Positions 604-61,949 of a DNA stretch of 63,101 nt are shown here, piece by piece; position 1 is the first letter of the stretch; the number at the start of each line of letters is the position of its first letter. Both the position numbers and the translations under genes were made by a program. The stretch comes from a virus. The notes below the pieces were generated by a model. The model worked only from the letters and a program-made list of their open reading frames with translations, did no database searches and was not told the DNA's origin. Where the stretch lies: IMG/VR virus record IMGVR_UViG_3300035667_000002; one strand, given 5' to 3'.

Positions 604-632
604 ACGTTACAGGCATGACAGCTAAGTGTCAA
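604..632 (-). promoter_or_regulatory. conserved promoter
   Basis: TTGACActtagctgtcatgcctgTAACGT, 17-nt spacer. Drives 366..560. Confidence 0.7.
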
Positions 633-638
633 GCTCTG

Positions 639-1016
639 TCAGGATTCGGTCAGGACGGTCCAGTCCGTCATGCCGGTGAGCGCGTTACGCACGATGCCCC
701 AGAGCCAGGACGGCATCGAGTCGATCTTGCGGTCCGTGAACCCCTCGTCCGTCCACTCCATCGAGCAGCGCAGCGAGTCCGACTCCGAGCCGTCCCCCTT
801 GAGCTGGGGGCCCATGATCTTGACGGTGTGGACCCGGATCGAGCCGGCCGCTCCATCGGTGGTCTCGATGATCGCGACGATCGAGAGGGTGTCAGGCCGG
901 AACGAGACGTGCCGGCGGCGGTATCGGTTCTGATCCGGGTCGTCCAGGACCGGGCCGTTCTTGAACTTGAGCACCATCGACCGGCGCGTCCGGTCATTCG
1001 TGACTGTGATCTCCAC
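639..1016 (-). CDS. hypothetical protein
   Basis: ORF 639..1055. The ATG at 1055 lies inside the -10 of promoter 1052..1080, so the GTG at 1016 (GAGGGGA RBS) or a leaderless GTG at 1046 is more likely. The start is uncertain. Confidence 0.5.
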   Translation of the reverse strand: MEITVTNDRTRRSMVLKFKNGPVLDDPDQNRYRRRHVSFRPDTLSIVAIIETTDGAAGSIRVHTVKIMGPQLKGDGSESDSLRCSMEWTDEGFTDRKIDSMPSWLWGIVRNALTGMTDWTVLTES

Positions 1017-1051
1017 GGGGTGTCCCCTCTGTCGTGTCTCTGTCACCTCTG

Positions 1052-1080
1052 ACATTACAGGCGTGGCGACAAGGTGTCAA
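1052..1080 (-). promoter_or_regulatory. conserved promoter
   Basis: TTGACAccttgtcgccacgcctgTAATGT. Drives 639..1016. Confidence 0.7.
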
Positions 1081-1094
1081 GAGGGGACGCGCCG

Positions 1095-1559
1095 TCACTC
1101 GAACTTGCTGGTCCAGGAGGTGTCCTTGTCCAGGCCAGCGCCGTTCGTCGTGGTCATCCACAGGGCGGGATCGCGAACCGCGCCGGTCGTCGGGTCGATG
1201 TTGCGGGACTCGCCCGAGGGCCCGTCCCAGGTCCGCGAGGGCTCGGGCACGATCGGGTGCTCCGCCGTGGCCGCGTTCGGGTCCACGAGGGTGAACCGGT
1301 AGCCGAGCCGGGAGAGGGAGTCCACCACGGCCTGGGCCTGGGAGATGTCCAGGGTCGCGCCGGCCGAGACCAGGATCTTGGCCGCCTCGGCGCGGCCCAC
1401 CATCTGAGCCTCGGCCAGGGCGGCCAACCGTCTGACCTCGGCCAGGACCGGGCGCACCGCCTCGGCGATGGCGTGGTTGGTCTGGGTCGCCACGGCCTCG
1501 GCAATGGCCCGTTCGAGTTTGCCACCCTCGATGGTGATCGAGCCGGAAAGCTGTGTCAT
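1095..1559 (-). CDS. hypothetical protein
   Basis: 154-aa ORF with a GGGGGAGAG RBS before the ATG at 1559 and high GC3. Confidence 0.6.
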   Translation of the reverse strand: MTQLSGSITIEGGKLERAIAEAVATQTNHAIAEAVRPVLAEVRRLAALAEAQMVGRAEAAKILVSAGATLDISQAQAVVDSLSRLGYRFTLVDPNAATAEHPIVPEPSRTWDGPSGESRNIDPTTGAVRDPALWMTTTNGAGLDKDTSWTSKFE

Positions 1560-1599
1560 CGTCTCTCCCCCTTACACGGCCGGCGGTCTGTCGGCCTGG

Positions 1600-1629
1600 T
1601 TGCAACGTAACAGGCGGTCATGCTACCTT
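1600..1629 (+). promoter_or_regulatory. promoter (variant), overlaps the reverse one
   Basis: TTGCAA-18 nt-TACCTT, then 6 nt to ATG 1636 (leaderless). Confidence 0.45.
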
Positions 1630-1633
1630 GCAA
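1605..1633 (-). promoter_or_regulatory. promoter (variant) inside 38-bp palindrome
   Basis: TTGCAAggtagcatgaccgcctgTTACGT. Drives 1095..1559. Confidence 0.5.
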
Positions 1634-1635
1634 CC

Positions 1636-1854
1636 ATGACGTTGAAGTTGGAGCTGAGCACCGCCGCCCGGACCGCACTGCTCTCCGCCGGCACATCACG
1701 GCAGGGAGCCAAGACCTACCCCCGTGAGAACCAGGCCGTACGGGCCGAGCTGCTGGCCGCCGGCCTGATCGGTGACAACGACGGTTTGACCATGCGGGGC
1801 ACCATCGCCCGGGAGAAGGCCGTGGACGCACTGCTGGACGAGTTCGACAACTGA
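1636..1854 (+). CDS. hypothetical protein (72 aa), candidate leaderless mRNA
   Basis: ATG lies 6 nt after the TACCTT -10 of promoter 1600..1629. No RBS is present. Confidence 0.5.
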   Translation: MTLKLELSTAARTALLSAGTSRQGAKTYPRENQAVRAELLAAGLIGDNDGLTMRGTIAREKAVDALLDEFDN

Positions 1855-1868
1855 CGAGAGGTAACCGA

Positions 1869-2414
1869 ATGACTGAGAGCAACCAGAGCACGCCCGAGGT
1901 GAAGAGGCCCCCGATGGGTCCTGCCATCGTGATGACCATCGTGGAGACCGCCTGGGTGGTCGCGATCGTGTCCCTGATCTGGGGCGGTGACTACTCGGAC
2001 GGCTGGACCGGCCATGACGCGGTGGTGGCCCTGGTCCTGCTGGTCCCGATCCTGCACGCGGTGGGCTCGGTGCGCACCGTCTGGAAGGCCCGGAGCGGCT
2101 ACTCCAGCTCGGTTCAGGCGTACGCGACGGCCCTTGCCGGTGACACCGGAGTGTGGCGCGATGAGCTGGACCGGGTGCGCCTGACCGTGCGCTGGGATGG
2201 CGAGGCCGGCCACTACTGGATCAAGGGCACGTTCGACCGCGAGGAACTGACCGAGGAAGAGCCGTGGGTCGACTCGCTCACCCTGGGGGAGATGGTCCAG
2301 CGCGAGGAGCGCACGAACACCTTGCGGCCCGAGGACACCGAGGCCACCCGCGCGATCCGTGGCCGCCTGATGATCCCGAGTTGGGACCGGTTCGAGAGCG
2401 AGGACAGCCTGTGA
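1869..2414 (+). CDS. membrane protein
   Basis: GAGAGG RBS. Two or three hydrophobic segments in the N-terminal half. Confidence 0.6.
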   Translation: MTESNQSTPEVKRPPMGPAIVMTIVETAWVVAIVSLIWGGDYSDGWTGHDAVVALVLLVPILHAVGSVRTVWKARSGYSSSVQAYATALAGDTGVWRDELDRVRLTVRWDGEAGHYWIKGTFDREELTEEEPWVDSLTLGEMVQREERTNTLRPEDTEATRAIRGRLMIPSWDRFESEDSL

Positions 2415-2866
2415 GCGAGGACTTGACCGGTCAGGCGTTCATCGTCAAGGCCGGAGATGACCGCGTGGGGGGTATGCCGGACGGCCTGTTCTTTCCTGGC
2501 CTCCAGAAGATCCACGACGTCTCTGACGGCCATCACACGTTCGGGGACCTGTATGACCACCGCCGCGCGCTCACGCGGGCTCTCGCGCTCGCGATCGTCA
2601 AGGGTGCGGACGGGGTTGGCTGGCGCTCCTGGCGCGAGATCAACGCGTGGCGGTCCAAGCGGCACCACCCGGAGAACGGCCCGATGTTCGAGGGCTATTT
2701 CGTGATCGGGTTCAACCTGGGTACCACCGGCCAGGTCTCGTATCACTACAAGCTGGAGCACTGGGACGAGTTCGAGGGTGTGCCGGCGCTGGAATACGCG
2801 CCGCGCTGGGACGGCCACACCCCCGAGGACACGGTGGCCCGGCTCCTGGCCTGGACCCCCGTCTGA
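2411..2866 (+). CDS. hypothetical protein
   Basis: GTGA start/stop overlap with the upstream gene and high GC3. C-terminal ...APRWDGHTPED motif. Confidence 0.6.
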   Translation: MSEDLTGQAFIVKAGDDRVGGMPDGLFFPGLQKIHDVSDGHHTFGDLYDHRRALTRALALAIVKGADGVGWRSWREINAWRSKRHHPENGPMFEGYFVIGFNLGTTGQVSYHYKLEHWDEFEGVPALEYAPRWDGHTPEDTVARLLAWTPV

Positions 2867-2880
2867 CAGGTAAGCGTCAA
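2863..2880. promoter_or_regulatory. operator-like palindrome (no -10)
   Basis: cTGACaggtaagcGTCAA. Overlaps the stop of 2411..2866 and lies 35 nt upstream of promoter 2915. Confidence 0.45.
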
Positions 2881-2910: not shown

Positions 2911-2914
2911 GTCG

Positions 2915-2943
2915 TTGACACCTCGTCGGTACGCCTGTAAGGT
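2915..2943 (+). promoter_or_regulatory. conserved promoter
   Basis: TTGACAcctcgtcggtacgcctgTAAGGT. Drives 2986..3198 and downstream genes. Confidence 0.65.
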
Positions 2944-4538: not shown

Positions 4539-4699
4539 TGGGCGACGCGTTGATCGCGCTGGGCATGGTCCTGGCGGTGTTCGCTCTGCTCTACGGCGGG
4601 GCGCGGTTCATGGGCAACGGCCGGTGCTGGCGCTGCCGCAAGCTCTGCCCCCCGTGGTCGGTCTACTGCCGGAGGTGCCTCGATGGCCCAGAAGCCTAG
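4538..4699 (+). CDS. small membrane protein with Cys-rich tail (53 aa)
   Basis: TGATG overlap. N-terminal helix followed by CWRCRKLC...YCRRC. Not in the ORF track because it is under 60 aa. Confidence 0.4.
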   Translation: MGDALIALGMVLAVFALLYGGARFMGNGRCWRCRKLCPPWSVYCRRCLDGPEA

Positions 4700-4979
4700 G
4701 CCCGTCAAGCGCACGGCCCGCGAGATCGCGCGGCTGGTCTCGGTCACGATGCGCCTCGGGTCGTACCACATCGGGCCGGGTCACCGGGAGTTCGTGTGCC
4801 CGGTGGCGTACGAGGCCAAGAGCACCCAGGACGGCGTCTCGCACCGGTTCGCGGTGCGGGTGCAGGTCTGGGAGAAGCCTGACCGGGTGCCCCTGGTCAA
4901 GCTGGCCTTGGCCCAGCACCTGGCGGATGCCGACACCAACGGTGAGCCCTGTCAGGACGCGCACCGCCGGAAGGGTTGA
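4683..4979 (+). CDS. hypothetical protein
   Basis: 98-aa ORF with good GC3. Confidence 0.55.
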   Translation: MAQKPRPVKRTAREIARLVSVTMRLGSYHIGPGHREFVCPVAYEAKSTQDGVSHRFAVRVQVWEKPDRVPLVKLALAQHLADADTNGEPCQDAHRRKG

Positions 4980-5004
4980 CACTTAGACGTCATGCCTGTA
5001 ATGT
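4976..5004 (+). promoter_or_regulatory. conserved promoter
   Basis: TTGACActtagacgtcatgcctgTAATGT. Drives 5057..5542. Confidence 0.7.
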
Positions 5005-5056: not shown

Positions 5057-5542
5057 ATGAAGATCGTCGGAATCGCCGAGATCAGCGCCACCGCCGTCAA
5101 CGTCTCGGCCCGTGACTCTCAGACCTGGGACAACGTGCTGGCGTTCTCCGAGGCCCGGCCGGCCAGCCTGGCCGACGCCGACGAGGCCCTGTTCGCCCAC
5201 GGGTTCGGCCGGGTGCGTGCCTGGGACCTGGGGGAGAACGGGACCGTCACGGCGGCGGTGGCGACGGTGGACAACGAGTTCAACGGCGTACGGGCCGCGC
5301 GCCTGGACGTCATGGTCGGCGCCGAGAGCCACCACAACCTGGAGCTGTGCCTGGCCCGCGAGGTCCAGGACGGTGACCTGATCACCTCCGAGCCCGGTTG
5401 CCCGCTCGCGGTCGTGGCCGGCTCGCGCTACGAGTCCGGCACGATGCGCCTGCACATGGTGGGCGAGTGCAAGGTCTGGGATGAGCGCCACACCACCACG
5501 TTCCCGGCCGACCGGCCCCTCTGGGTCGCGCGCAAGCGCTGA
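5057..5542 (+). CDS. hypothetical protein
   Basis: ATG follows a GGAAGGACA RBS and lies downstream of promoter 4976..5004 and a 5'UTR hairpin. Confidence 0.65.
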   Translation: MKIVGIAEISATAVNVSARDSQTWDNVLAFSEARPASLADADEALFAHGFGRVRAWDLGENGTVTAAVATVDNEFNGVRAARLDVMVGAESHHNLELCLAREVQDGDLITSEPGCPLAVVAGSRYESGTMRLHMVGECKVWDERHTTTFPADRPLWVARKR

Positions 5543-5602: not shown

Positions 5603-5620
5603 TTGACATGTCAGAGTCAA
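5603..5620. promoter_or_regulatory. operator-like palindrome over a start codon
   Basis: TTGACatgtcagaGTCAA. Contains ATG 5608. Confidence 0.45.
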
Positions 5621-5928
5621 GCCAGCCGTTCGACCTTGTGAGTTACATCTGGGACCGAGCGGTGGCCGCCGGCCTGCCACGGGACAAGGTGGCGGCCGAG
5701 GTCAAGTGGGCTATGGAGTACGTGAACGAGGCCCCTGAGCAGGCGATAGAGCGGATCAAGCGGCAGGCCATGCGGCACCACCCGTTCGTTGGTCCGGGCC
5801 CGTACTGCATGGGTTGGGGCCCCGAGGTGGCGGTGGGCACGGTCGAGGTCGGGATGATCATCATGCGGACCCAGTGCGGGTACCCGGCCGATCTGCATCC
5901 GCTGGAGAGCGGCGATGGCACGGCCTAA
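5608..5928 (+). CDS. hypothetical protein
   Basis: GAGAGGAG RBS. The start codon sits inside palindrome 5603..5620. Confidence 0.6.
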   Translation: MSESSQPFDLVSYIWDRAVAAGLPRDKVAAEVKWAMEYVNEAPEQAIERIKRQAMRHHPFVGPGPYCMGWGPEVAVGTVEVGMIIMRTQCGYPADLHPLESGDGTA

Positions 5929-9092: not shown

Positions 9093-9346
9093 GCGAGTTC
9101 GACACCGCGCCGCGCCGGCCAGCGTTCGAGCGCGAGCACAAGGTCTGGCACGCGTTCGAGCGGTACGGGTGGTGCGCGCCGGCCGAGGCCGAGGTGGCCG
9201 AGGCCCAGAGCCGCGTCTCGACCGTTCTCCAGGCCGAGGCCCTGCTCCCCCCGGGGTATCACGTCGTGTACGACACCACGCCCGTCCACCGGCCGCTCTC
9301 GGCCGACGTGGCCCGCGAGTGGCGAGCCAAGGGGCAGGACCGGTGA
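9089..9346 (+). CDS. hypothetical protein
   Basis: GTGA overlap with the portal gene. 85 aa. Confidence 0.5.
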   Translation: MSEFDTAPRRPAFEREHKVWHAFERYGWCAPAEAEVAEAQSRVSTVLQAEALLPPGYHVVYDTTPVHRPLSADVAREWRAKGQDR

Positions 9347-10170
9347 GCGCGCCGGTGTGGTCCGGCCGGGGCCGTGACCCGTGGATGCCCCAACGCCTGG
9401 ACTCGCGGATCGAGGCGGCCAGCGCCGAGGAGAAGATCCGCCGCGCGGTGTGGGCGGCGCTCTCGGACTGGCTCACCCAGACCAGCCGGCGCGTGGTCCG
9501 TGGCGACCGGCCACCGGACCTCGATGCCATCTGGGCGCGCGTTCCCGCGTGGCGCGATGCCGTGGAGGCGATCGTCTACCGGGGTGCGATCTACGAGGCT
9601 CTCCAGTCGGCGTACCGCGCGATCTTCGGTGCTGACTTCCCCTGGGACAAGCGGGTGTTCGTGACCCGCTACCTGACCGAGGTCACGAACCGCCTGGTCC
9701 GGGTGCCGGACGAGGTGTTCGACCTCGTAGCCGGCCAGATCGCGCAGGGTGCCGGCCTGGGCGAGACGCTCTCCAAGATCGTCAAGCGTGTTGACACTGT
9801 CCTGTCAACTACCGAGACACCGCGCTGGCAGAACCGGGCCGTGGTCATCGCCCGCACCGAGACGATCGGCGCGCTCAACGGCGGCCGGCTCGACGCGTTC
9901 CGCGCGTTCGCCGAGGACGAGGACGAGGAGCTGGAGAAGCTCTGGCTCAGCACCAGCGACAGCCGGACCAGGCCGACCCACCGGGCGGCCGACCAGCAGC
10001 GCACCCCGCTCGGGATGCCGTTCCTGGTGGGCGGGTTCTCGATCGAGTTCCCCGGTGACCCGATGGGCCCGGCCCAAGAGGTGATTCAGTGCCGTTGCAC
10101 CATGCTGTTGGTGGAGCCCGGTGAAGAGGTCAGCCTCACCAACCGACAGATGAAGCGTGCCGCCCGTTAA
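9343..10170 (+). CDS. MuF-like head morphogenesis (minor capsid) protein
   Basis: GTGA overlap. Contains ARTET...SRTRPTHRAADQQ...QCRCT, the SPP1 gp7/MuF C-terminal signature. Confidence 0.8.
   Translation: MSAPVWSGRGRDPWMPQRLDSRIEAASAEEKIRRAVWAALSDWLTQTSRRVVRGDRPPDLDAIWARVPAWRDAVEAIVYRGAIYEALQSAYRAIFGADFPWDKRVFVTRYLTEVTNRLVRVPDEVFDLVAGQIAQGAGLGETLSKIVKRVDTVLSTTETPRWQNRAVVIARTETIGALNGGRLDAFRAFAEDEDEELEKLWLSTSDSRTRPTHRAADQQRTPLGMPFLVGGFSIEFPGDPMGPAQEVIQCRCTMLLVEPGEEVSLTNRQMKRAAR
9791..9808. promoter_or_regulatory. intragenic operator-like palindrome
   Basis: TTGACActgtccTGTCAA, with perfect 6-bp arms, in the MuF gene. Codons are gtt gac act gtc ctg tca act. Confidence 0.45.
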
Positions 10171-12561: not shown

Positions 12562-12598
12562 TGTGTGTCCCTCCGGGTCGGTGTGCCTTACACCCAGA

Positions 12599-12627
12599 AC
12601 ATTACAGGCATGGCGGTTAAGTGTCAA
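12599..12627 (-). promoter_or_regulatory. conserved promoter
   Basis: TTGACActtaaccgccatgcctgTAATGT, an identical 29-mer to 12952..12980. Confidence 0.7.
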
Positions 12628-13022: not shown

Positions 13023-13286
13023 TCACCAGATGCCGCGCTGCCCGGCCATCTGCTCCTCTAGCAGGGTGTCCTGCCAGCCCCGGTTCTCCAGGTGGCGGAC
13101 CAGCGCACCCTCGGCCCAAATCTCGGCCGCGTTGTCGAGTTCCATCTGGGCGGTGAGCTGGTAGCAGGTCCGGACGCTGGTGACGTTCGCGTGGTAGGTC
13201 CGGTCCTCGGGGTGGTGGTTCCCGCACTTCACTCCGCCGGCCGTGGCCTTGACCTCGTACGCGCCCACTAGCTCGATCTCGTTCAT
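13023..13286 (-). CDS. hypothetical protein (87 aa)
   Basis: GAGAGGAA RBS, promoter 13341..13369 and terminator 12994..13013. Confidence 0.55.
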   Translation of the reverse strand: MNEIELVGAYEVKATAGGVKCGNHHPEDRTYHANVTSVRTCYQLTAQMELDNAAEIWAEGALVRHLENRGWQDTLLEEQMAGQRGIW

Positions 13287-13340: not shown

Positions 13341-13369
13341 ACATTACAGGTATGACGGTGAAGTGTCAA
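13341..13369 (-). promoter_or_regulatory. conserved promoter
   Basis: TTGACActtcaccgtcatacctgTAATGT. Confidence 0.7.
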
Positions 13370-20071: not shown

Positions 20072-20100
20072 ACTTTACAGGACTGACGTCGAGGTGTCCA
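20072..20100 (-). promoter_or_regulatory. degenerate copy of conserved promoter
   Basis: TGGACAcctcgacgtcagtcctgTAAAGT. It lies in the 3' end of the XRE gene, upstream of 19885..20034. Confidence 0.4.
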
Positions 20101-40766: not shown

Positions 40767-40812
40767 AGTGGATGTGAGGGGGACAAGCCCCCGGACCTGG
40801 AAGGACAAGACA

Positions 40813-46885: not shown

Positions 46886-47103
46886 CCTACGGAGCCGGCC
46901 GGCACCCGAACCGGTTCTTGGTCGAGTGCCCCGCGTGCCAGTTTCGCCGGGTGATCCTCCCCGGTGGCGTGCTGGTCTGCCTGCTCTGTGACCGGAGCTA
47001 TTCCAAGGACAACACCCTGGCCGGACCCGGGAACGCTCCCACGGCAGAGGAGCCACCGATCACCAACGGCCCGTTCTGGGACCCTCCCAAACTCAAGGGT
47101 TGA
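46882..47103 (+). CDS. zinc-ribbon protein
   Basis: GTGA overlap. CPACQ...CLLC motif. Confidence 0.5.
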   Translation: MTYGAGRHPNRFLVECPACQFRRVILPGGVLVCLLCDRSYSKDNTLAGPGNAPTAEEPPITNGPFWDPPKLKG

Positions 47104-47128
47104 CACCTACCCGGCATGACTGTAAGGT
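47100..47128 (+). promoter_or_regulatory. conserved promoter
   Basis: TTGACAcctacccggcatgactgTAAGGT. Drives 47268 onward. Confidence 0.65.
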
Positions 47129-50462: not shown

Positions 50463-53400
50463 ATGACGGACGGGATTCGCGAGGATGAGCGCCGGCTGGT
50501 TGAGGGTGTCGAACTTCTCAAGGTGACCGAGGGCAAGATCGAGCCCGACCCGATCAAGGGGGAGCTGACCGCCGCTCACGAGGACTACCTCCGGGCGCAC
50601 GCGATCGAGCTGGACGTGGCGGTGGCCCTCGGGGTTCGGTCGATCACCGGCAAGCACGACATGGCCGAGCTGGACGACCCGTGGCCCAGCTACTCGAACT
50701 TTCCGGCGGTGCTGTTCCCGTGGACCAGCCCTGGCGGCCGGGTCGAGATCCAGGTCCGCCCGGATGAGCCGACCATCGACCAGAACGGCCGGCCCAAAAA
50801 GTACATGTTCCGGATCGGGATGAACCCGGTCCTCTGGGCCGTCCGCGTGGTGCCCACCGCTGAGCGCATCCTGATCGTGGAAGGCACCAAGCAGTGCTTG
50901 GCCGCCGCCAGTTACGCGCCGGCCGGTGTGTCGGTCTACGGCATGGCCGGTTGCCGGATGTGGGCCAAGGACGGCGTGCCGCTCCCGGACCTCGCGGTGG
51001 CCGATGGCAAGGACGTGGTGGTCCTGCTCGACGCGGACGCGGCCAGCAACCTGGACGTGTTCCGGGCCGGCACCGGGCTGGCCGAGGCCCTCATGGCCGA
51101 GGGCGCCAGCAAGGTCTCGTTCGGCCGTCTCCCCGGTGGCGGTGGCAAGGCCGGACTTGACGACTTGCTGTCAACCAAAGAGCCCGAGCGCCGCGCCGGC
51201 TACCTGGAGCGGATCATCGAGACCGCCAAGGCCAAGCCCGCCGACGCGCGGCCGACCGGCAAGAGCAAAGACCAGGACCGGCCGGGGGCCGAGGACCGGG
51301 TAACCCTGGTGGTCAACAAAGACCGGTTCACCGTGATCAACGATCTGGCCGGCGCGCTGATCGGCCGGTGGGACGGACAGCGGCTGTTCAACCACGGGGG
51401 AGTGATCTCCCAGCTCGACGGCACCCGCATGGTCCCGGTGGACCGGGGCACGGCGCGCGACGTGATCCAGGAAACGTGCGTGACCGTCAAAGAGAACAAC
51501 GGCGCCCAGGGGACCACCTACTCGTTCGAGTGGCCCGACGGCAACGCCATCGCGGCGGTCATGAGCAAGGCCAGCAAGTTCTCCCCCCTGGACCGGATCG
51601 CACACGCGCCGTTCGTGCGCCCGGACGGCTCCGTCGTCCTGGAACCCGGCTACGACCCGGAGACCCGGACCATGCTCATGAAGGACCCGGAGCTGGCCGG
51701 CCTGGTGGTGCCCGAGAACCCGACACCGGCCGAGATCCAGGCCGCGCGCGTGCTGTTGATGGACGAGTGGCTCGGGGACTTCCCGTTCGCCACCGACACC
51801 GACAAGGCCAACTGTCTGGCCCTACTGGTCACTCCCGCGATCCGTGGTCTGGTCCCGCACGCGCCCCTGGCGGTCATCGATGGCCTCCAGATGGGTGTGG
51901 GCAAGAACCTGTTGGTGGACTCGCTGCTCACGGTCTACACCGGGGAGCCGGCGCGGCCGATGAACTGGGTCGATGACACCGAGGAGCTGCGCAAGCAGAT
52001 CACGAGTGCGTTCCGCACCGGTCAAGAGTTCTTCGTGTTCGATGAGGCCCACACGCTCCAGGGGGCACCGCTCGCGCAGGCCCTGACCGCCGCCACCTGG
52101 CAGGACCGCATCCTCGGTGTCTCGACCATGGCGGAGTTCCCGAACCGCGTCACGTGGGTGAGCCTCGGGAATCAGGTCCAGGTCAAAGGCGACATCACCC
52201 GGCGTGTCTACCGGATCGCGCTCCGGCCGAACTACGACAACCCCCAGGATCGGCCCTCATCAATGTTCCGGCACCCTGGCCAGTCGGGGCTCGACCTCGG
52301 GGCCTGGACCCGCAAGCACCGCCGGGATCTCCTGGTGGCCATCCTGACCTTGGTCCGGGCCTGGTTCGCGGCCGGCCAGCCGTACACCCGGCGCGGCTCC
52401 TCGTTCGGTTCGTTCGAGACCTGGGAGAAGTTCGCGGGTGGCGTGGTCCAGACCGCCGGCCTCCCGGGGTTCCTGGAGAACATCTCCGCGTGGCGCTCGG
52501 AGTCGGACTTTGACTCGCAGTATTGGATCGGACACATGACGTGGCTGACCGAGGTGTTCGGGACCACGCCGTTCCGGACCTCCGAGGTGCGTAACAAGGC
52601 CCTCGCGGATACGGCCAACTACCTGGCCCCGCCGAACCTGGACGACCTGGCGGACAAGAAGTACGGCAAGCAACTGGGGGAGGCGTACTCCCGGCTCAAG
52701 GGCCGGCGCTACGAGGGCCACCGCATCGAGCGCGTGGGCTACGCGCACGGCCACGTGACGCTCTGGCGGGTTCACGCTCCTGGTGACACGGCAGAGGTCG
52801 TGACGGTGCCCCCGGTCCCACCGGCTCCCGAGCCCGAGCCGGCTCCGCCGGCCGATCCGGTAGCCGAGAGCCTGGACGTGTTGGAGGGTTCATTCCAGCG
52901 CGCGGCCGAGCGGTTCGTGGACACCATGACCGACGGCCGGCCGTTCTCCGACGTGCTCGCGCTCGACCTGGAGGCCGGTGACGCGGACGACCTTCACCGC
53001 CACGGCCCTGGGTACGTGACCCTGGCGGGCATCGCCTCGGACGAGAACGAGATCGAGATCGACGGCTCCAGTCCGGCCACGTTCGCGGTGAGCGCCATCG
53101 CGGGCGCCACGATCACCACCGGGCACAACATCATGGCGTTCGACCTCCCCGCACTCGTGCACGAGGGCGTGCTGGACATGCCGACCATCCACGAGTTCGC
53201 GGCCGGCGGCCGGTTCGTTGACACGCTCCTGTTGGCCCGCTACCTGGACCCCCCGATGGCCCGGGAGAAAGGTGTCGACCACACCCGCCGGTACGACCTG
53301 GATTCGCTGGCCGAGCGGCTCGGGCTCGGCCGTAAGGACGACGCGGGCAAGGCCCTGGCCAAGAAGTACGGCGGTTGGGGGAGCATTCCCACCGACCCGG

Positions 53401-54701
53401 ACACCGAGGACGGGGCCGCGTTCCGGAGCTACCTGCACCAGGACGTGAACCTCTCTCGCCAGGTCTACGCGACCTTGCTGGAGCAGTCCGGCGGCACCGT
53501 GCCGGAGTACGTGGCCCGGGAACACCGGGTGGCGGCCATCGCGGCTCAGATCAGCTACAACGGGTTCCGCGTGGACCGTGAGGTCCTGGCCGAGCGGATC
53601 GCGGCGATCAACGCCCAGAAGGCCGTGGCCATGAACTGGCTCGCCAGCAACATCGGGCTACCGCTGGAGGACGGGCGCGGCAAGGTCTACGCCTCCCCCG
53701 TGGGCACGAAGGTGGGCAAAGAGCGGTTGGAGCAGGCGCTCCGGGCGGCCGGGGCCACCTCGATCTGGCGGACCGAGAAGTCCGGCCAGCTCGACATCAG
53801 CTCAGACCACATGCGCCACCTGGCCAGCGAGTATGGGCACCTCCCGATGGTCAAGGCCATCGCGGAGAACGTGTACCGGATCGTGTCGGCGCGCTCGGTG
53901 TTCGAGACCGTCAACAACCACCTGATCGGGGACCGCGTCCACCCGAAGATCGGATTCGATCAGGCCACCGGTCGCTGGTCCGTGACCTCGCCAGGGCTCA
54001 CCGTGCTGGGCAAGCGCAACGGCCGGCACACCGAGCGCGCGGTGTTCCTCCCCGAGCCCGGCCACGTCGTGATGACGGCCGACCTCTCCCAGGTCGACAT
54101 GCGGGCCATCGCCGGTCTGAGCCAGGACCCGGCCTATATCCAGATGCTCAAGACCGACGACCCGCACTCAGAGATCGCACTGGCCCTGTTCGGGGACGTC
54201 AAGCGGCGCGACGAGGCCAAGGCCATCGGGCACGGCTGGAACTACGGTCGCTCGATCAGGGCCATCTCCGAGGGGAACGAGATCGATCCCGCGCTGGTGG
54301 TGCAATTCGACCGCTCGATGCGCGACCGGTTCGGCCGGCTGGTCGAGTGGCGCGAGGAGATCCGGACCCTTGCGGGTTCGGGGGCACTGCTGGACAACGG
54401 GTTCGGCCGGCTCATGCGGGCAGACCCCCAGCGCGCACACACCCAGGGGCCGGCGCTCATGGGCCAGGGAGCGGCGCGAGACATCATGATGACCGGCCTG
54501 TTGGCGTTGCCGGCGGAGATCCTCCCCATGCTCCGGGCCCAGATCCATGACGAGATCGTGTTGAGCGTGCCGGCGGCTGACGCGCCCGAGGTGGCTCGCG
54601 CCGTGGTCGAGGCGCTCTCGTTCGAGTGGCGCGGCGTGCCGATCACGGCTGACACCGGGCCGTTCGGGTCCGACTGGTCCAAGTGCTACGAGAAGGGATA
54701 G
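50463..54701 (+). CDS. fusion protein: Toprim-like primase domain + P-loop-like NTPase + 3'-5' exonuclease + family A DNA polymerase
   Basis: Toprim: ILIVEGTKQ and VVLLDADAASN. NTPase: GVGKN and FVFDEAH. Exonuclease: LDLE, GHNIMAFDLPAL, YLHQDVNLS. Pol I motifs A, B and C: DLSQVDMRAIA, RDEAKAIGHGWNYG, IHDEIV. Confidence 0.85.
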   Translation: MTDGIREDERRLVEGVELLKVTEGKIEPDPIKGELTAAHEDYLRAHAIELDVAVALGVRSITGKHDMAELDDPWPSYSNFPAVLFPWTSPGGRVEIQVRPDEPTIDQNGRPKKYMFRIGMNPVLWAVRVVPTAERILIVEGTKQCLAAASYAPAGVSVYGMAGCRMWAKDGVPLPDLAVADGKDVVVLLDADAASNLDVFRAGTGLAEALMAEGASKVSFGRLPGGGGKAGLDDLLSTKEPERRAGYLERIIETAKAKPADARPTGKSKDQDRPGAEDRVTLVVNKDRFTVINDLAGALIGRWDGQRLFNHGGVISQLDGTRMVPVDRGTARDVIQETCVTVKENNGAQGTTYSFEWPDGNAIAAVMSKASKFSPLDRIAHAPFVRPDGSVVLEPGYDPETRTMLMKDPELAGLVVPENPTPAEIQAARVLLMDEWLGDFPFATDTDKANCLALLVTPAIRGLVPHAPLAVIDGLQMGVGKNLLVDSLLTVYTGEPARPMNWVDDTEELRKQITSAFRTGQEFFVFDEAHTLQGAPLAQALTAATWQDRILGVSTMAEFPNRVTWVSLGNQVQVKGDITRRVYRIALRPNYDNPQDRPSSMFRHPGQSGLDLGAWTRKHRRDLLVAILTLVRAWFAAGQPYTRRGSSFGSFETWEKFAGGVVQTAGLPGFLENISAWRSESDFDSQYWIGHMTWLTEVFGTTPFRTSEVRNKALADTANYLAPPNLDDLADKKYGKQLGEAYSRLKGRRYEGHRIERVGYAHGHVTLWRVHAPGDTAEVVTVPPVPPAPEPEPAPPADPVAESLDVLEGSFQRAAERFVDTMTDGRPFSDVLALDLEAGDADDLHRHGPGYVTLAGIASDENEIEIDGSSPATFAVSAIAGATITTGHNIMAFDLPALVHEGVLDMPTIHEFAAGGRFVDTLLLARYLDPPMAREKGVDHTRRYDLDSLAERLGLGRKDDAGKALAKKYGGWGSIPTDPDTEDGAAFRSYLHQDVNLSRQVYATLLEQSGGTVPEYVAREHRVAAIAAQISYNGFRVDREVLAERIAAINAQKAVAMNWLASNIGLPLEDGRGKVYASPVGTKVGKERLEQALRAAGATSIWRTEKSGQLDISSDHMRHLASEYGHLPMVKAIAENVYRIVSARSVFETVNNHLIGDRVHPKIGFDQATGRWSVTSPGLTVLGKRNGRHTERAVFLPEPGHVVMTADLSQVDMRAIAGLSQDPAYIQMLKTDDPHSEIALALFGDVKRRDEAKAIGHGWNYGRSIRAISEGNEIDPALVVQFDRSMRDRFGRLVEWREEIRTLAGSGALLDNGFGRLMRADPQRAHTQGPALMGQGAARDIMMTGLLALPAEILPMLRAQIHDEIVLSVPAADAPEVARAVVEALSFEWRGVPITADTGPFGSDWSKCYEKG
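51157..51174. promoter_or_regulatory. intragenic operator-like palindrome
   Basis: TTGACgacttgctGTCAA in the polymerase fusion gene. Confidence 0.45.
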
Positions 54702-55078: not shown

Positions 55079-56032
55079 ATGACAGAGCAGGACAATCACC
55101 CAGACCCGTACGCGCCCGTCTGGGGGGAGCAGAACCCGGGAGATGACACGCGGGTGATCCGGCCGATCGCGGCCCAGAACGTGGTCCAGCCCGGCCAGGA
55201 GATCAGGTACCGCGACGGCAAGGCCGAGGTGGTCTGGTCCGACCCGCAGGCCCCGCCGCTCTGGCACACCGCCGCCGCCTACGGCGCACCCCGCCAGCCG
55301 ATGCCGGCGCGCCGGCCCCCGGAGGGCTACGGGCCGCCGCCGGAACTGCGCGACCTCCAGGCCCAGAACCCCGAGATCGACCTGAGCGCGGTCAGCAAGC
55401 CCAAGCGGCGGCGCTGGGTCCCGTGGCTGATCGGTGCGCTGGTGGTCATGGTGGCCGGATGCGTCCTCGGGATCGCGGGGCTCGGGCTCCTGGCGGGCTC
55501 GGAGCCGGACGGCGCGGCGCCGATCGGCGAGTCCAGCGCCGCGCCGGTTGCCGGCAAGGTCGCGCCGACCAAGGCGGCCGAGCGCGGTACGCGTGCCAAC
55601 CCCTACCGGGCCGGCCAGCGCTTCACCCTCCCCGAGTGGGAGGCCAGCCTCGGTAAGACCACCTCGGGCGCGGCGGCGGTCAGGGCCGTGACCAAGGCGA
55701 ACACGTTCAACGAGAAGCCCAAGGCCGGCAACACGTTCGTGATGGTCAAGGCCACGGTCAAGCACACCGAGGGCGACCCGATGATGCCGTGGTTGGGGAT
55801 CTCGATGGGCTTCCTCGGCAAGAACGGCGTGGTCTACGGCAAGGGCTCGGCCGACTCGTATTGCGGTGTGGAGCCAGCGCCGGCCCTGGACGACGCGGGG
55901 GAGCTTTACCCTGGCGCGTCGGCCTCGGGCAACGTGTGCGTCCAGGTCCCGACCTCCCAGGTGGCCGGCGGTGTGTGGACCGTGGAGTCCCTGTTCCGCG
56001 CGGATGAGCGTCGATTCGTCGCCCAGAAGTAG
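55079..56032 (+). CDS. membrane-anchored protein with DUF4352-like ectodomain
   Basis: Pro-rich N-terminus, one TM helix, then an ...NTFVMVKATVKHTEG...GNVCVQVP beta-rich domain. Confidence 0.55.
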   Translation: MTEQDNHPDPYAPVWGEQNPGDDTRVIRPIAAQNVVQPGQEIRYRDGKAEVVWSDPQAPPLWHTAAAYGAPRQPMPARRPPEGYGPPPELRDLQAQNPEIDLSAVSKPKRRRWVPWLIGALVVMVAGCVLGIAGLGLLAGSEPDGAAPIGESSAAPVAGKVAPTKAAERGTRANPYRAGQRFTLPEWEASLGKTTSGAAAVRAVTKANTFNEKPKAGNTFVMVKATVKHTEGDPMMPWLGISMGFLGKNGVVYGKGSADSYCGVEPAPALDDAGELYPGASASGNVCVQVPTSQVAGGVWTVESLFRADERRFVAQK

Positions 56033-57985: not shown

Positions 57986-59492
57986 CCGGAACCCGTTCTC
58001 GATGACCCTCCCGGCTCCCGACGATGATCTCCGCGCTCAGATCCAGAAGGCCGTGGCCGCGCGGCGCTGGTACAACTCCCCCGTGGCCTGGGCGCGTGAC
58101 TGCCTGAGCGTCGACCTGGCGGGCTACCAGGGGGAGGTCCTGGACGCACTGCCTATCCGCAAGCGGGTCGCTGTGCGTGGCCCTCACGGCCTGGGCAAGA
58201 GTTTCATGGGCGCGGTGCTGGTCTGCTGGTTCGCGACGACCCGGGACCTGGCCGGCCAGGACTGGAAGATCATCACCACCGCGTCCGCGTGGCGACACCT
58301 TGAGGTCTACCTCTGGCCCGAGATCCACAAGTGGGCCGGCAAGATCGATTTCGATACCCTCGGCCGGAGCCCGTTCGTCAAGAACAAGGATCTATTGGAT
58401 CTCCGGCTCAAGCTCAACTACGGCGCGGCCACCGCCGTAGCCAGCAACCAGCCCGAGCGGATCGAGGGCGCGCACGCGCGTCAGCTCCTGTACCTACTTG
58501 ACGAGGCGAAGATCATCCCGCCCGAGACCTGGGACTCGATCGAGGGCGCGTTCTCGAACGCGGGCCCCGACACCGGGGACGACGCGTACGCGTTCGCCAT
58601 GAGCACCCCGGGCCCCCCTGGCGGCCGGTTCTACGACATCCACCGCCGCGCCCCTGGGTACGAGGACTGGTGGACACGCCATGTGAAGCTGGACGAGGCG
58701 GTGACCGCCGGCCGGATCTCCCGGCACTGGGCCGATCAGCGTCTGCTCCAGTGGGGCCAGGACTCCGCGATCTACCACAACCGCGTCCTTGGCGAGTTCC
58801 ACGCGAGCGACGAGGACGCGACGATCCCCCTGGCCTGGATCGAGCAGGCGATCGAGCGCTGGCACGAGTGGGACCGCGCCGGCCGGCCCGACGGCGGTGG
58901 CCCGCTCTGGACCGGTGTCGACGTGGGCCGAGGCGGTGACGAGTCGGTGATGGCCATCCGGGACGGCGCGTTCGTACGGTTGGAGGCCAACCGGCGGCGC
59001 GACACCATGAGCCAGGTTGCCGACCTCCAGGGTCGGCTCGGCCGGGCCATCATCGACACGATCGGCCTGGGCGCTGGCGTGTACGACCGGATGCGCGAGC
59101 TTCACCTCCGGGCGCTGCCCTACGTCGGTTCGGCCCGCACGGCGGCGCGCGACCGGACGGGTAAGTACGGGTTCACGAACACCCGGTCCGCCGCGTACTG
59201 GAACCTTCGGGAGTTGCTGGACCCGGCCTATGAGCCCACGCTCGCTCTCCCCCCGGACGACATGATGATCTCGGACCTGACCATGCCGACCTGGCAGGTC
59301 ACCACCGGCCTACCGCCCAAGATCCAGGTGGAGCCCAAGGACAAGGTGGTGGAGCGGCTCGGCCGCTCGCCGGACCGTGGAGACGCGGTGGCCATGGCCA
59401 TGTGGGCCGACCGGCACAAGGTGGGCGACACGTTCGCGGTTCCGACCAACGTGCGGATGGGCACCGGAGTTTCTCCCCTCGCAGGCCGTTGA
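57978..59492 (+). CDS. terminase large subunit
   Basis: VRGPHGLGKS Walker A, LLDEAK Walker B-like, and a C-terminal nuclease-like region with acidic residues. Confidence 0.8.
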   Translation: MSDRNPFSMTLPAPDDDLRAQIQKAVAARRWYNSPVAWARDCLSVDLAGYQGEVLDALPIRKRVAVRGPHGLGKSFMGAVLVCWFATTRDLAGQDWKIITTASAWRHLEVYLWPEIHKWAGKIDFDTLGRSPFVKNKDLLDLRLKLNYGAATAVASNQPERIEGAHARQLLYLLDEAKIIPPETWDSIEGAFSNAGPDTGDDAYAFAMSTPGPPGGRFYDIHRRAPGYEDWWTRHVKLDEAVTAGRISRHWADQRLLQWGQDSAIYHNRVLGEFHASDEDATIPLAWIEQAIERWHEWDRAGRPDGGGPLWTGVDVGRGGDESVMAIRDGAFVRLEANRRRDTMSQVADLQGRLGRAIIDTIGLGAGVYDRMRELHLRALPYVGSARTAARDRTGKYGFTNTRSAAYWNLRELLDPAYEPTLALPPDDMMISDLTMPTWQVTTGLPPKIQVEPKDKVVERLGRSPDRGDAVAMAMWADRHKVGDTFAVPTNVRMGTGVSPLAGR

Positions 59493-59517
59493 CACCTTGT
59501 CACCACGCCTGTAATGT
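59489..59517 (+). promoter_or_regulatory. conserved promoter
   Basis: TTGACAccttgtcaccacgcctgTAATGT. Overlaps the terminase stop codon. Confidence 0.7.
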
Positions 59518-60441: not shown

Positions 60442-60755
60442 CCGACGAGACCACGGCCAGGGACGCTCTCGTGGCCTCCCTGGCCTGTTCGGACGGGTTC
60501 CCGGTCCCGAGTGCCGAGCGGTTCGCCGAGCGCGTCCTGGAGCAACTCCAGGCGCGCGGTTGGGACGTGCGGCCGAGTAACGCGGTCTCGTTCCAGCCGG
60601 CGACGGCTGAGTACCACCCTGGGGAGATGTGGGTCCCGTGGCTCTGGCGTCCGTCCGGTCACGTGCACTGGCACACCTCGGCCAACGAACCGCCGGTTCC
60701 CGGCGGCCAATGGAGCCTGCTCTACGTGCGGACGAGGGACGGAGAGGTCCAGTGA
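60438..60755 (+). CDS. hypothetical protein
   Basis: GTGA overlap. 105 aa. Confidence 0.5.
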   Translation: MTDETTARDALVASLACSDGFPVPSAERFAERVLEQLQARGWDVRPSNAVSFQPATAEYHPGEMWVPWLWRPSGHVHWHTSANEPPVPGGQWSLLYVRTRDGEVQ

Positions 60756-61027
60756 CCAACGACGCTCGGTTGATCATGGCGCAAGAGTTGTCGGCCCAGC
60801 TCCGGCGGATGCCGGTCCCCCTGGCCGAGATCGTGGCGAACCTGGAGGTGGCGCTCACCGCCGCCGGCTACCGGATCGCGCCGATCGCGGAACAGGTCAC
60901 GGACGCGGTGGTCCGGCACGTGACGCGGTACCCCTGCACGTGCGCCGGTCGGCGCGGATGCATGGAGCACCCGTTCGGTAACCCCCTCCCCGATTGGCGT
61001 GGCGTAGACACCCGCGCGACAGGTTGA
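60752..61027 (+). CDS. hypothetical protein
   Basis: GTGA overlap. 91 aa. Confidence 0.5.
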   Translation: MTNDARLIMAQELSAQLRRMPVPLAEIVANLEVALTAAGYRIAPIAEQVTDAVVRHVTRYPCTCAGRRGCMEHPFGNPLPDWRGVDTRATG

Positions 61028-61052
61028 CACTTCACAGTCATGCATGTAACGT
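61024..61052 (+). promoter_or_regulatory. conserved promoter
   Basis: TTGACActtcacagtcatgcatgTAACGT. Drives 61108..61533. Confidence 0.7.
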
Positions 61053-61055
61053 AGT

Positions 61056-61084
61056 GGGTGCTGGTCCGGTCAGGGCCGGCACCC
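61056..61084 (+). other. 5'UTR hairpin immediately after promoter
   Basis: GGGTGCTGG...CCGGCACCC, the same GGGTG/CACCC theme as 5005..5038. Confidence 0.45.
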
Positions 61085-61107
61085 ATTGACATTGAAGGGA
61101 CAAGACC

Positions 61108-61533
61108 ATGGGCGTTCACCGCCGCAACTCCGAGGGCACCCGAGGCGACATCTCCGTACACCTCGGGTTCCCGATCTCGAACGCTGAGCCCGAGCGCGGC
61201 GCGCGGCTGGAGGTCATCGATGAGATGTCCGGGCTGATGATGATCTCCGTTACCCTGACCGCGACCCAGCTCCTGGAGATGATGGCCGGCCAGCACACGC
61301 GGGCACATGCCGAGGTGTTCGTCCCGCACCCCGAGCGGCTCGGCAAGCAGATGGAGAACACCAACACGTTGATCACCGGTGGCGGGATCAGCAGCGACGA
61401 GGCGGACGCGGCGGCCGAGGCCACCGCCGCCGGCTACCGGGACCAGGGTTGGGAGTTCGTCAGCATCTCCCGGACCAACACGGGCGGCCGGAACGTCATC
61501 GCCCGGCGCTGGGTAACGCCCGAGCCGGAGTAG
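61108..61533 (+). CDS. hypothetical protein
   Basis: Promoter 61024..61052, a 5'UTR hairpin and a GAAGGGACA RBS. Terminator 61567..61599. Confidence 0.6.
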   Translation: MGVHRRNSEGTRGDISVHLGFPISNAEPERGARLEVIDEMSGLMMISVTLTATQLLEMMAGQHTRAHAEVFVPHPERLGKQMENTNTLITGGGISSDEADAAAEATAAGYRDQGWEFVSISRTNTGGRNVIARRWVTPEPE

Positions 61534-61566
61534 TATCGGCCCTGCCTTCCATGGTGCGTCGGTTCA

Positions 61567-61599
61567 CAAAGCCCCCTGAGCGATCCTTGGGGGGCTTTG
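61567..61599 (+). terminator. hairpin terminator
   Basis: CAAAGCCCCC-13 nt-GGGGGCTTTG, after 61108..61533. Confidence 0.55.
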
Positions 61600-61645
61600 C
61601 CGTGTCCGGGCTCCTGGGGGACCATGTCACCAGGAGGTGGTCTGA

Positions 61646-61834
61646 GTGGTCAGCTCAGCCGGCGGACGCAAGGGTTACGTGGCACCGGGACGGCACCGGG
61701 CGTACAAGGCGCTCCGGCGCAAGGGCAAGTCCAAGAGCGTTGCGGCCCGGATCGCGAACGCGGGTCGCACGAAGGTCGGGCGAAAGAAGATGGCCCGCAA
61801 GGCGGCGCGCACCCGCAAGCGGCACGGCCGGTAG
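61646..61834 (+). CDS. small highly basic protein (62 aa)
   Basis: AGGAGG upstream of the GTG. Very rich in Lys and Arg. Confidence 0.45.
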   Translation: MVSSAGGRKGYVAPGRHRAYKALRRKGKSKSVAARIANAGRTKVGRKKMARKAARTRKRHGR

Positions 61835-61836
61835 CG

Positions 61837-61935
61837 GTGTGGCGAGCCTGGGTGGTGGTCGGCCTGGTCCTCGCGGTGATCGTGTTCGCGATGCTCTGGT
61901 TCGGCTGGCTCTCCCCCTGGGTCCCACGTCGTTGA
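61837..61935 (+). CDS. possible small membrane protein (32 aa)
   Basis: GTG lies 3 nt after the previous stop. Single hydrophobic helix. Lies next to the lysis genes. Confidence 0.3.
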   Translation: MWRAWVVVGLVLAVIVFAMLWFGWLSPWVPRR

Positions 61936-61949
61936 CACTTCACCGTCAA
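61932..61949. promoter_or_regulatory. operator-like palindrome (no convincing -10)
   Basis: TTGACacttcaccGTCAA followed by gcctgCCGATC. Lies upstream of the lysin gene. Confidence 0.45.

Follow-up and report, generated by a model that had tools for sequence, protein, structure and literature searches.

The viral record IMGVR_UViG_3300035667_000002 of IMG/VR (63,101 nucleotides, analysed over its whole length and hereafter called the window) raises the question why one short inverted repeat, TGAC-N8-GTCA, recurs both at the promoters and inside the genes of a single phage genome. A first-pass annotation of this DNA had counted 23 copies by eye and described them as present at promoters and scattered through transcription units. 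Both the count and this distribution were confirmed by a pattern scan, which returned 23 exact matches in the window, far above the shuffled controls: dinucleotide shuffles contained 1.05 matches on average (standard deviation 0.95, maximum 3) and a second-order Markov model predicted 1.07. The excess is therefore real and approximately 20-fold, whereas the estimate that well under one match would occur by chance was too low, as about one is expected. Nine of the copies are located in promoters, four lie outside gene bodies without a -10 element and ten are intragenic, as had been classified. The coordinates were right as well; those of six minus-strand promoters mark where the 29-bp promoter begins on the left, and the TGAC of these promoters starts 12 nt rightward (616, 13353, 38635, 39251, 39791 and 40675).

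A dispersed DNA word and the selection acting on it

The word had been described as a perfect 18-bp palindrome, TTGACA-N6-TGTCAA, but this sequence occurs only once, at 9791. The oriented consensus is (g)TTGAC-ACTTmACn-GTCAA(g) and spans approximately 20 bp. Its symmetry is limited to the outer 5 bp (TTGAC/GTCAA) and the central TT/AA; the interior ACTTmACn is asymmetric, and the dyad is broken at positions 5 and 10, where one orientation has C/C and the other G/G. Taken together, one-mismatch variants were not enriched (22 compared to 25.5 expected) and are real only when they contain the consensus interior. A weight matrix, trained on relatives only and used with a threshold of 12 bits, was therefore adopted, and with this matrix 30 sites were found in the window where 0.2 are expected. 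The list of exact matches made by eye was thus correct, and the full set is larger, including 16 to 20 promoters. A near miss at 48163 scored under the threshold of the weight matrix and is probably no site. All TGACACT sequences in the window belong to a promoter or to a site with both halves complete.

The window represents a complete phage genome of ~62,974 bp (68% G+C) that was assembled as a circle, as follows from a 127-bp exact direct repeat at both ends (1-127 and 62975-63101). The sole cultured relative of this phage is Actinoplanes phage phiAsp2, which is syntenic with the window and shows 40-80% protein identity; an 8-kb probe gave 75% DNA identity over 16% of its length. The motif is carried by related phages as well. 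The phiAsp2 genome contains 36 exact copies (32 + 4, compared to 0.75 + 0.17 expected), its promoter TTGACACTTCACAGTCAAGCCTGTAATGT is the same as that of the window, and the same classes of orphan copies (copies without a -10 element, see below) are present. An exact-word scan of IMG/VR identified 118 loci, and nearly all high-G+C loci have 0.3-1.2 copies per kb. In ~100 uncultured relatives, together comprising 941 kb, 445 exact copies were found, ~190 of which are accompanied by a -10 element and ~136 of which are intragenic orphans. Mycobacteriophage Rosebush, a distant relative which shares structural genes with phiAsp2, showed no excess (1 copy compared to 1.03 expected). No description of the motif or of phiAsp2 regulation was found in the literature searched, a search which did not extend to the 2004 phiAsp2 genome paper (Virus Genes); in the phiAsp2 GenBank record ribosome-binding sites and translational coupling are annotated, and the motif is not.

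Nine of the ten intragenic copies in the window are read in the same frame (nnT GAC nnn nnn nnG TCA, frame 2) and the copy at 45512 is read in another (frame 1), as the first-pass annotation had noticed; in the family, 120 of the 136 intragenic orphans are in frame 2. In 1000 synonymous-codon shuffles in which every protein was kept, 0.30 intragenic matches were expected (maximum 3) compared to the 10 observed. The shuffles preferred frame 1 (0.23) over frame 2 (0.08), and the nine frame-2 copies are more than 100-fold above expectation. The codons at the sites are indeed rare in this genome (TCA 3.5% of Ser, CTT 3.8% of Leu, GTT 5.5% of Val and ATT 4.2% of Ile), and 9 of its 36 TCA codons are located in motif sites. 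The shared frame is explained by the lowest cost to the protein and not by a common peptide function. Frame 0 cannot occur, as the TGA would then be read as a stop codon, and the stop codon TAA likewise rules out the consensus TTAA centre in frame 2; frame-2 copies have GAA, CAG or AAC at the centre, and the full GTTAAG is seen in the frame-1 copy at 45512.

Selection on the DNA word rather than on the protein, as had been proposed, is supported by the codon-preserving shuffles and the rare codons and above all by conservation at homologous coding positions. The site at 9792 in the MuF-like gene was found in all 28 distinct homologues, which share 50-67% amino-acid identity. Its codons are GTT or ATT (T-ending in 28/28), GAC (28/28), two variable codons, CTG (28/28) and TCA (28/28), with A as the next base (28/28), whereas elsewhere in the alignment Val is encoded by GTC or GTG and Ser by AGC, TCG or TCC, with drift. 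Only the two halves TTGAC/CTGTCAA are frozen at this site, and the interior codons drift. At the tail-gene site 32551 phiAsp2 and seven further relatives (8 of 14 homologues) share the identical 22-nt word at the same codon position, and the six remaining homologues encode the same peptide via GC-rich synonymous codons. Sites have been both retained and newly gained over evolution. The protein encoded by 17241..18410 ends in six tandem 20-aa repeats, GAVSAPxxLDxxVSGxRxSx (17970-18330), two of which carry the motif. As observed before, the neighbouring repeat reads CTCGACATCGCGGTCTCGGGC and the motif-bearing repeats read CTTGACTGTGAAGTGTCAGGA and CTTGACATTGAAGTGTCAGGG; the copies at 18155 and 18215 arose by synonymous and non-synonymous changes in these two of the six sibling repeats.

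The intragenic copies in the window all have one orientation, but an orientation rule was rejected since the family copies are mixed: intragenic orphans of the family are 53 sense and 52 antisense with respect to transcription, and 17 sense and 32 antisense after de-duplication and when clear asymmetry was required. The sites are thus non-random, selected at the DNA level and conserved in the phage family.

Promoter copies and orphan copies

The nine promoter copies form the -35 hexamer and the first 12 nt of the 17-nt spacer of a near-identical predicted sigma-A-type promoter, TTGACACTTnACnGTCAnGCCTG-TAAnGT, and a ribosome-binding site and a gene in matching orientation follow this promoter at a fixed distance (Table 1). 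About half of the 16 to 20 members of this promoter family in the window have a degenerate second half (GCCA, ACCA, GTCC or GGCA). Judged by a -35 TTGACA, a spacer of 16-18 nt, a -10 TAnnnT and a downstream gene with ribosome-binding site, 16 promoters in the window and 164 distinct promoters in the family are predicted to be of the sigma-A (HrdB) type. An E. coli-style promoter scan found only one of the promoters and is uninformative because the -10 is TAATGT (TAnnnT type). The word covers approximately -36 to -19 and overlaps a consensus -35 and an optimal 17-nt spacer, which is the geometry of a repressor site. This position fits neither an activator at -41.5 nor a MerR-type activator, which requires a spacer of 19-20 nt.

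The other 14 exact copies in the window are orphans, in which TAnnnT is absent at the right distance. Orphans always retain both halves including GTCA, whereas many promoters have lost the second half. Some copies supply the stop codon of the upstream gene by means of the TGA of the motif, which is the case for 56 copies in the family.

That the word is a promoter element only, recognized by the host sigma-A polymerase and spread as a duplicated cassette, with decayed or nascent promoters or chance matches as orphans and no dedicated binder, is improbable. In line with such an origin, the whole promoter is near-invariant from -35 to -10 in the 164 family promoters (G13 and C20 each in 163/164), which exceeds the dyad, the orphan at 61933 resembles a promoter that has lost its -10, and recent duplication links the 38.6- and 39.2-kb cassettes. 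However, the orphans lack a TAnnnT at the right distance and keep a GTCA that is needless for a -35 and that many true promoters have lost, and the intragenic copies greatly exceed the number expected. The MuF orphan, moreover, is fixed in 28 diverged homologues with rare codons and in its halves only, and a decaying promoter would not be held in this way.

Table 1. Copies of the word, predicted promoters of the same family, the candidate binding protein and the gene blocks of the window. TGA refers to that of the motif.
Position	Strand	Feature	Remarks
604..632	-	promoter, full motif (TGAC 616-631)	TTGACACTTAGCTGTCATGCCTG-TAACGT; drives 366..560(-)
4976..5004	+	promoter, full motif (4977-4992)	drives 5057..5542 and portal/MuF block; TGA doubles as stop codon of 4683..4979
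13341..13369	-	promoter, full motif (13353-13368)	drives 13023..13286(-)
38623..38651	-	promoter, full motif (38635-38650)	drives 38404..38580(-)
39239..39267	-	promoter, full motif (39251-39266)	drives 38802..39197(-); recent duplicate of 38.6-kb cassette
39779..39807	-	promoter, full motif (39791-39806)	drives 39418..39735(-); back-to-back with promoter of candidate binder
40663..40691	-	promoter, full motif (40675-40690)	drives 60-aa basic protein 40431..40613(-); left member of divergent early promoter pair
40738..40766	+	promoter, full motif (40739-40754)	drives 40774..41991 and rightward replication/recombination genes
61024..61052	+	promoter, full motif (61025-61040)	drives 61108..61533; TGA doubles as stop codon of 60752..61027
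1052..1080	-	same promoter family, second half GCCA	
2915..2943	+	same promoter family, second half GGTA	directly after orphan 2864 and terminator hairpin
12598..12627	-	same promoter family, second half GCCA	one-mismatch site 12611, 22.5 bits
12951..12980	-	same promoter family, second half GCCA	one-mismatch site 12964, 21.7 bits
42048..42077	+	promoter-like, TTGACACTTAAGCGCCACGCCTGC-TAAGTT	upstream of 42142..42870; one-mismatch site, 14.8 bits
42976..43004	+	same promoter family, second half GTCC	
47100..47128	+	same promoter family, second half GGCA	TGA is stop codon of 46882..47103
59489..59517	+	same promoter family, second half ACCA	
2864..2879	.	orphan, no -10	TGA is stop codon of 2411..2866; terminator-like hairpin next
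5604..5619	.	orphan	covers start codon (5608) of 5608..5928
9792..9807	.	orphan	in MuF/SPP1-gp7-like head gene 9343..10170; sole perfect TTGACA-N6-TGTCAA
18155..18170	.	orphan	20-aa repeat of protein 17241..18410; window-specific
18215..18230	.	orphan	next 20-aa repeat of protein 17241..18410; window-specific
21689..21704	.	orphan, 16.5 bits	in 21546..22262; window-specific
23227..23242	.	weak orphan, 13.6 bits	tape-measure gene; absent from all homologues, may be chance match
27745..27760	.	strong orphan, 31 bits	tail protein 25490..29389; absent from homologues and therefore a recent gain
32551..32566	.	orphan	in tail protein 32282..33355
36925..36940	.	orphan	in 36836..37597
45512..45527	.	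orphan	near 3' end of YqaJ/RecE-like exonuclease gene 44365..45585; sole frame-1 intragenic copy
51158..51173	.	orphan	large polymerase-like gene 50523..54701; conserved in relative L084
55043..55058	.	orphan, intergenic, no -10	20 nt upstream of ATG of 55079..56032
61933..61948	.	orphan	TGA is stop codon of 61837..61935; GCCTG kept after site, -10 position CCGATC
39990..40265	+	candidate binder, 91-aa MerR-like/excisionase-like winged helix	homologue of phiAsp2 Pas39
39921..39950	+	distinct promoter of candidate gene, TTGCGC-N18-TAGAGT	
0.4-1.5, 11.9-13.3 and 38.4-40.6 kb	-	small leftward genes	
5-11.6 kb		head genes	
13.5-38.3 kb		long capsid/tail block	
40.8-62.9 kb	rightward	replication/recombination/terminase block	

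A putative binding protein and its possible mode of action

The word is very probably a DNA site bound by a protein. The outer dyad symmetry fits a predicted binding protein that is dimeric or dimerizes on the DNA, as the first-pass annotation had suggested. An RNA hairpin, UUGAC-N8-GUCAA, that takes part in transcript processing, stability or translation is an extremely improbable alternative. Isolated 22-24-mers are predicted to fold (-4.5 to -7.9 kcal/mol, z -1.3 to -2.7) and several copies are located at stop or start codons, but at promoters transcription starts only downstream of the copy, the conserved loop, which is asymmetric, is found in both orientations with respect to transcription, the stems are invariant and show no covariation, and five A/U-rich pairs would be a weak element in RNA of 68% G+C. 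No Rfam match was found over the whole window.

The binder must be family-wide because the word is family-wide. Among the five helix-turn-helix (HTH) proteins that had been proposed as candidates, only those encoded by 39990..40265, 22099..22545 and 42142..42870 are conserved wherever the motif is, and the XRE protein 20075..20287 was rejected, as it is absent from phiAsp2, which has the motif. The 22099..22545 protein (148 aa, weak HTH_23) and the 42142..42870 protein, which has an AlpA-like N-terminus, are both conserved in phiAsp2 and in metagenomic loci. PDB sequence searches with the three conserved candidates gave nothing meaningful, and NCBIfam gave nothing for them either. The 39990..40265 protein shows 66% identity to its phiAsp2 homologue and has 338 metagenomic homologues, in which the helix-turn-helix (RNTLSSY), the wing (GQYxLPVF) and the C-terminal RPGQGARTDL are invariant. 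It matches PHROG 597 'DNA binding protein' (E 2.9e-14), and its match to Pfam HTH_17 (E 0.0055) does not reach the curated cut-off; many homologues have a precomputed PF12728 assignment. The core of its AlphaFold model has a predicted local distance difference test (pLDDT) score above 90, and the top Foldseek matches are MerR-family DNA-binding domains, BldC, RdfS, Pukovnik Xis, GlnR and RacA. At the sequence level no homology to RacA, TnrA/GlnR or HspR was detectable. Homologues in Gordonia phages (~37% identity) were set aside, as they come from unrelated temperate phages. From its sequence and predicted fold, the 39990..40265 protein may be the binder of the word, an assignment that we make tentatively.

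The gene of this candidate adjoins a motif-bearing promoter in nearly all relatives examined. Its own promoter is distinct and in the relatives reads TTGTCA/TTGCCA-N18-TATAGT, at 22-30 bp from the motif of the leftward promoter in nearly all of them; the 18-nt spacer ends in GGCGTGCCTG (window 39921-39989, L001 33090-33130 and ~15 other loci). In phiAsp2 an 18-bp palindrome, ACCTGGGGATCTCCAGGT, abuts the -35 of the candidate gene promoter, and TCCTAGGA sites are found there in the window. These TCCTAGGA sites are the core of a second over-represented word, the ~20-bp palindrome GAAGCATCCTAGGATGCTTC, which has 13 copies and the highest z-score of all 8-mers. The copies at 38259-40343 form pairs with a spacing of 34-35 or 24 bp and precede the leftward promoters and the 39990 gene, and one further copy, at 13414-13419, precedes the 13353 promoter. 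The GAAGCATCCTAGGATGCTTC palindrome does not occur in phiAsp2, a genome that lacks CCTAGG altogether, and other relatives show no clusters of it. A lineage-specific regulator probably uses this palindrome as its operator, and the XRE protein 20075..20287 is one possibility for this regulator.

The XRE gene itself lies on the minus strand in a lineage-specific insert in the tail-gene block (19885-20345), which comprises this 70-aa XRE/Cro-type HTH gene and a 49-aa hydrophobic open reading frame and is absent from phiAsp2. The insert has its own promoter, TTGTCA-17-TAAGGT, and the mRNA is nearly leaderless because this promoter ends ~7 nt before the ATG. The HTH gene 22099..22545(-) is convergent with 21546..22262(+), with an overlap of ~160 bp (21546-22545) in which both genes have coding-type third-position G+C; the same arrangement is found in phiAsp2 (pas25/pas26).

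Integrase, partition (ParAB) and telomere functions were not found by Pfam or PHROGs among ~40 proteins scanned, a set in which not every small open reading frame was included. The promoter pattern had 0 matches in 185,579 species genomes (one genome per species), so no prophage copy was seen, and the 18-mer had 54 single matches scattered across taxa, only six of them actinobacterial. Homologues of the hallmark HTH protein 39990..40265 were all located on contigs of at most ~63 kb. These results point to a phage family that is virulent or at least non-integrating, and they weigh against a true stoperator system of a temperate phage, in which an immunity repressor silences the prophage as in Cluster A and R4-like Streptomyces phages. 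The layout is the same, with the word at early promoters (TTGACA, as in the L5 site GGTGGCTGTCAAG), at stop codons and in transcription units (PMC9283540; PMC10276819 supplement), and the XRE-type gene at 20075..20287 is repressor-like. The genome is complete with its terminal repeat, however, the XRE protein is missing from the motif-bearing phiAsp2, and the site is dyad-symmetric with an orientation that is independent of transcription, so that a temperate stoperator system is very improbable.

A host protein could also bind the word if the phage borrowed the operator of an actinobacterial regulator or nucleoid protein (e.g., MerR/HspR-like) to time its promoters. The HspR operator at promoters, CTTGAGT-N7-ACTCAAG, resembles the word (PMC6102357), but differs by one half-site base and 1 bp of spacing. 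Three of the six actinobacterial chromosomal matches have extra consensus-like copies within 8 kb (L146 three, L135 two and L139 two). L146 is a 395-kb contig of an uncultured Actinomycetes metagenome-assembled genome and apparently bacterial chromosome; its three near-consensus copies (2445-2590 and 6488-6505) and a reversed GTCAA...TTGAC palindrome flank a GNAT acetyltransferase gene and an NB-ARC/TPR (STAND-type) gene, and no homologues of window proteins were found near these copies. L139 (Micromonospora halophytica DSM 43171, 1-4000) contains, besides its two copies, a tape-measure-like gene and a 357-aa open reading frame whose N-terminus is 45% identical to the phage winged-helix protein. 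This locus may be a phage remnant or a related mobile element, and the presence of the HTH homologue points to a protein of mobile elements rather than of the host. Only six exact actinobacterial 18-mer matches and none for the promoter pattern were found in the species genomes, and the motif is common to phages of presumably various hosts, where it is accompanied by the phage HTH protein with its invariant recognition helix. A borrowed host operator thus has a low probability.

On balance, the evidence, which comes from sequence comparison, tips towards the word being the operator of a family-conserved phage protein that represses the early promoters, with the orphans as accessory sites. Two subunits would most likely read the invariant outer halves TTGAC and GTCAA, and a protein bound at -36 to -19 of 9 to 16 near-identical promoters would keep RNA polymerase off. 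The promoters would in this way be shut as a group, resulting in a temporal switch in an apparently virulent phage. The ~14 orphans, located on stop codons, on a start codon or in genes in the cheapest frame, would be accessory sites for the same protein; they might act as roadblocks that halt read-through or antisense transcription, might anchor loops or cooperative binding, or might buffer the free regulator. The leading candidate for this regulator is the 39990..40265 protein, whose own distinct promoter lies back-to-back with a motif-bearing promoter.

Several points weigh against repression by this protein. Since about half of the promoters in the window have a degenerate second half, repression of the group would be uneven, and late transcription would be impeded by strong roadblocks within late structural genes. 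Another cause may underlie part of the conservation at the promoters, which exceeds the dyad, and the extra copies at the three actinobacterial loci described above give a host protein some probability. As for the candidate, all Foldseek matches were weak (E 0.02-0.5, none <= 0.001), and it lacks the coiled coil by which MerR proteins form dimers. BldC and Xis, which have the same fold, bind direct repeats as head-to-tail multimers and not dyads. The adjacency of the candidate gene to a site is weak evidence, as the region is dense in such promoters.

A more far-reaching version of the repressor reading, which we regard as doubtful, is a 'symmetric stoperator' system, in which a minimal MerR-like winged-helix protein would dimerize on ~30 dyad sites per genome in an apparently virulent actinophage family and would combine early shut-off with a genome-wide action in lytic growth. 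Each immediate-early promoter would then have the word built into its -35 and spacer, essential coding sequences would accommodate it at the price of rare codons, and the genome-wide action would be an elongation roadblock or a chromosome-organizing scaffold. Genome-wide copies could alternatively be sites for a non-transcriptional DNA transaction, such as the organization, segregation, replication, packaging or protection of DNA, like the ram sites of RacA, and the overlap with promoters would then be secondary. One coding site is universally conserved with only its half-sites fixed, RacA, which belongs to the fold class of the candidate, binds dispersed TGAC...GTCA dyads, TGACGCCGGCGTCA, and organizes the chromosome (PMC4914108), and the 17-bp dyad repeats of Cluster O phages were judged to act outside transcription initiation (PMC4351075). 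The largest gap between sites in the window is 6.0 kb compared to a random mean of 8.4 kb, but this trend to even spacing is not significant (P ~0.09), and the location of about 40% of the family copies exactly on the promoter -35 and spacer, in register, would be hard to explain. We therefore consider a purely non-transcriptional role unlikely.

Genome organization and comparison with known systems

Genes in the window were called from third-position G+C, and the resulting blocks are listed in Table 1. No tRNA was detected in the window by ARAGORN. Two non-coding gaps are unusually long, 45586-45897 (~310 bp) and 54702-55078 (~375 bp). The first contains a tRNA T-arm-like sequence, GGTTCGAAACC, and is matched in phiAsp2 by a similarly sized gap at the corresponding position; neither a tRNA (ARAGORN) nor an Rfam match nor clear conservation with phiAsp2 was found for this gap.

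The first-pass annotation had likened the word to the stoperators of Cluster A mycobacteriophages, an analogy that holds for the layout and fails for the asymmetry of the sites, the orientation rule and the temperate lifestyle. Cluster A stoperators are asymmetric 13-mers that are bound by a monomeric immunity repressor and whose orientation follows transcription (PMC9283540). As in Cluster A (L5 gp71, TipsytheTRex repressor) and R4-like Streptomyces phages, one word is found at a TTGACA early promoter and at more than 20 dispersed sites, many at stop codons or in short gaps and some in genes (PMC9283540; PMC10276819 supplement), and the right half TGTCAAG is common to the L5 site and the window word. 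Stoperators are asymmetric 13-16-mers for a two-domain monomeric repressor, however, whereas the window word is ~20 bp long and dyad-symmetric at its ends. Stoperators have one working orientation and belong to temperate phages, whereas the window word has mixed orientation in a lineage in which lysogeny genes and prophages were not found. The window word also matches none of the listed stoperator consensus sequences.

The closest formal analogue is the set of repeats of Cluster O mycobacteriophages, TGTTCGGNNNCCGAACA, which are 17-bp dyads with a predicted dimeric binder (PMC4351075). In both systems more than 30 dispersed dyad copies, approximately one third of them intragenic, occur without orientation rule in an apparently non-temperate actinophage (PMC4351075); here, the weight matrix gave 30 sites in the window, and phiAsp2 has 36 exact copies. 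The sequence of the Cluster O repeats is different, and they are not promoter-linked, whereas here approximately 40% of the copies form a -35 and spacer. New beside Cluster O is the direct evidence of purifying selection on copies in coding regions. A trio of glycosyltransferase, methyltransferase-like and glycosyltransferase genes at the end of the tail block (34259-37597), homologous to phiAsp2 pas33-35, resembles the virion-modification genes noted in Cluster O phages.

The conserved inverted repeats (CIRs) of Streptomyces phage phiC31 are 17-bp inverted repeats at many loci, mostly by early promoters, which are bound by the c repressor. Phage phiC31 differs in being temperate, in the intergenic location of its CIRs and in having early promoters of a type other than TTGACA/sigma-A. 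The candidate protein may share the fold of the minimal winged helices of the MerR superfamily (RacA with ram, TnrA/GlnR, and HspR with HAIR). Of these, RacA and HspR bind comparable dyads (PMC4914108; PMC6102357); the RacA, TnrA/GlnR and HspR sites differ from the window word in spacing and half-site details.

The cultured phage phiAsp2, hundreds of natural variants and a single strong candidate protein make this family a tractable system for the role of orphan sites in lytic growth, and the promoter consensus can directly assist the annotation and engineering of phages that infect hosts of the Actinoplanes/Micromonosporaceae type. In temperate Cluster A and R4-like phages dispersed regulator sites serve prophage silencing, and such sites are also known from Cluster O phages. 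The window and its relatives add a third version, with a symmetric word, a promoter-family core and a lineage without sign of lysogeny, and with unusually clean comparative evidence of selection in the form of one coding site that is frozen in 28 diverged genomes, down to its rare codons.

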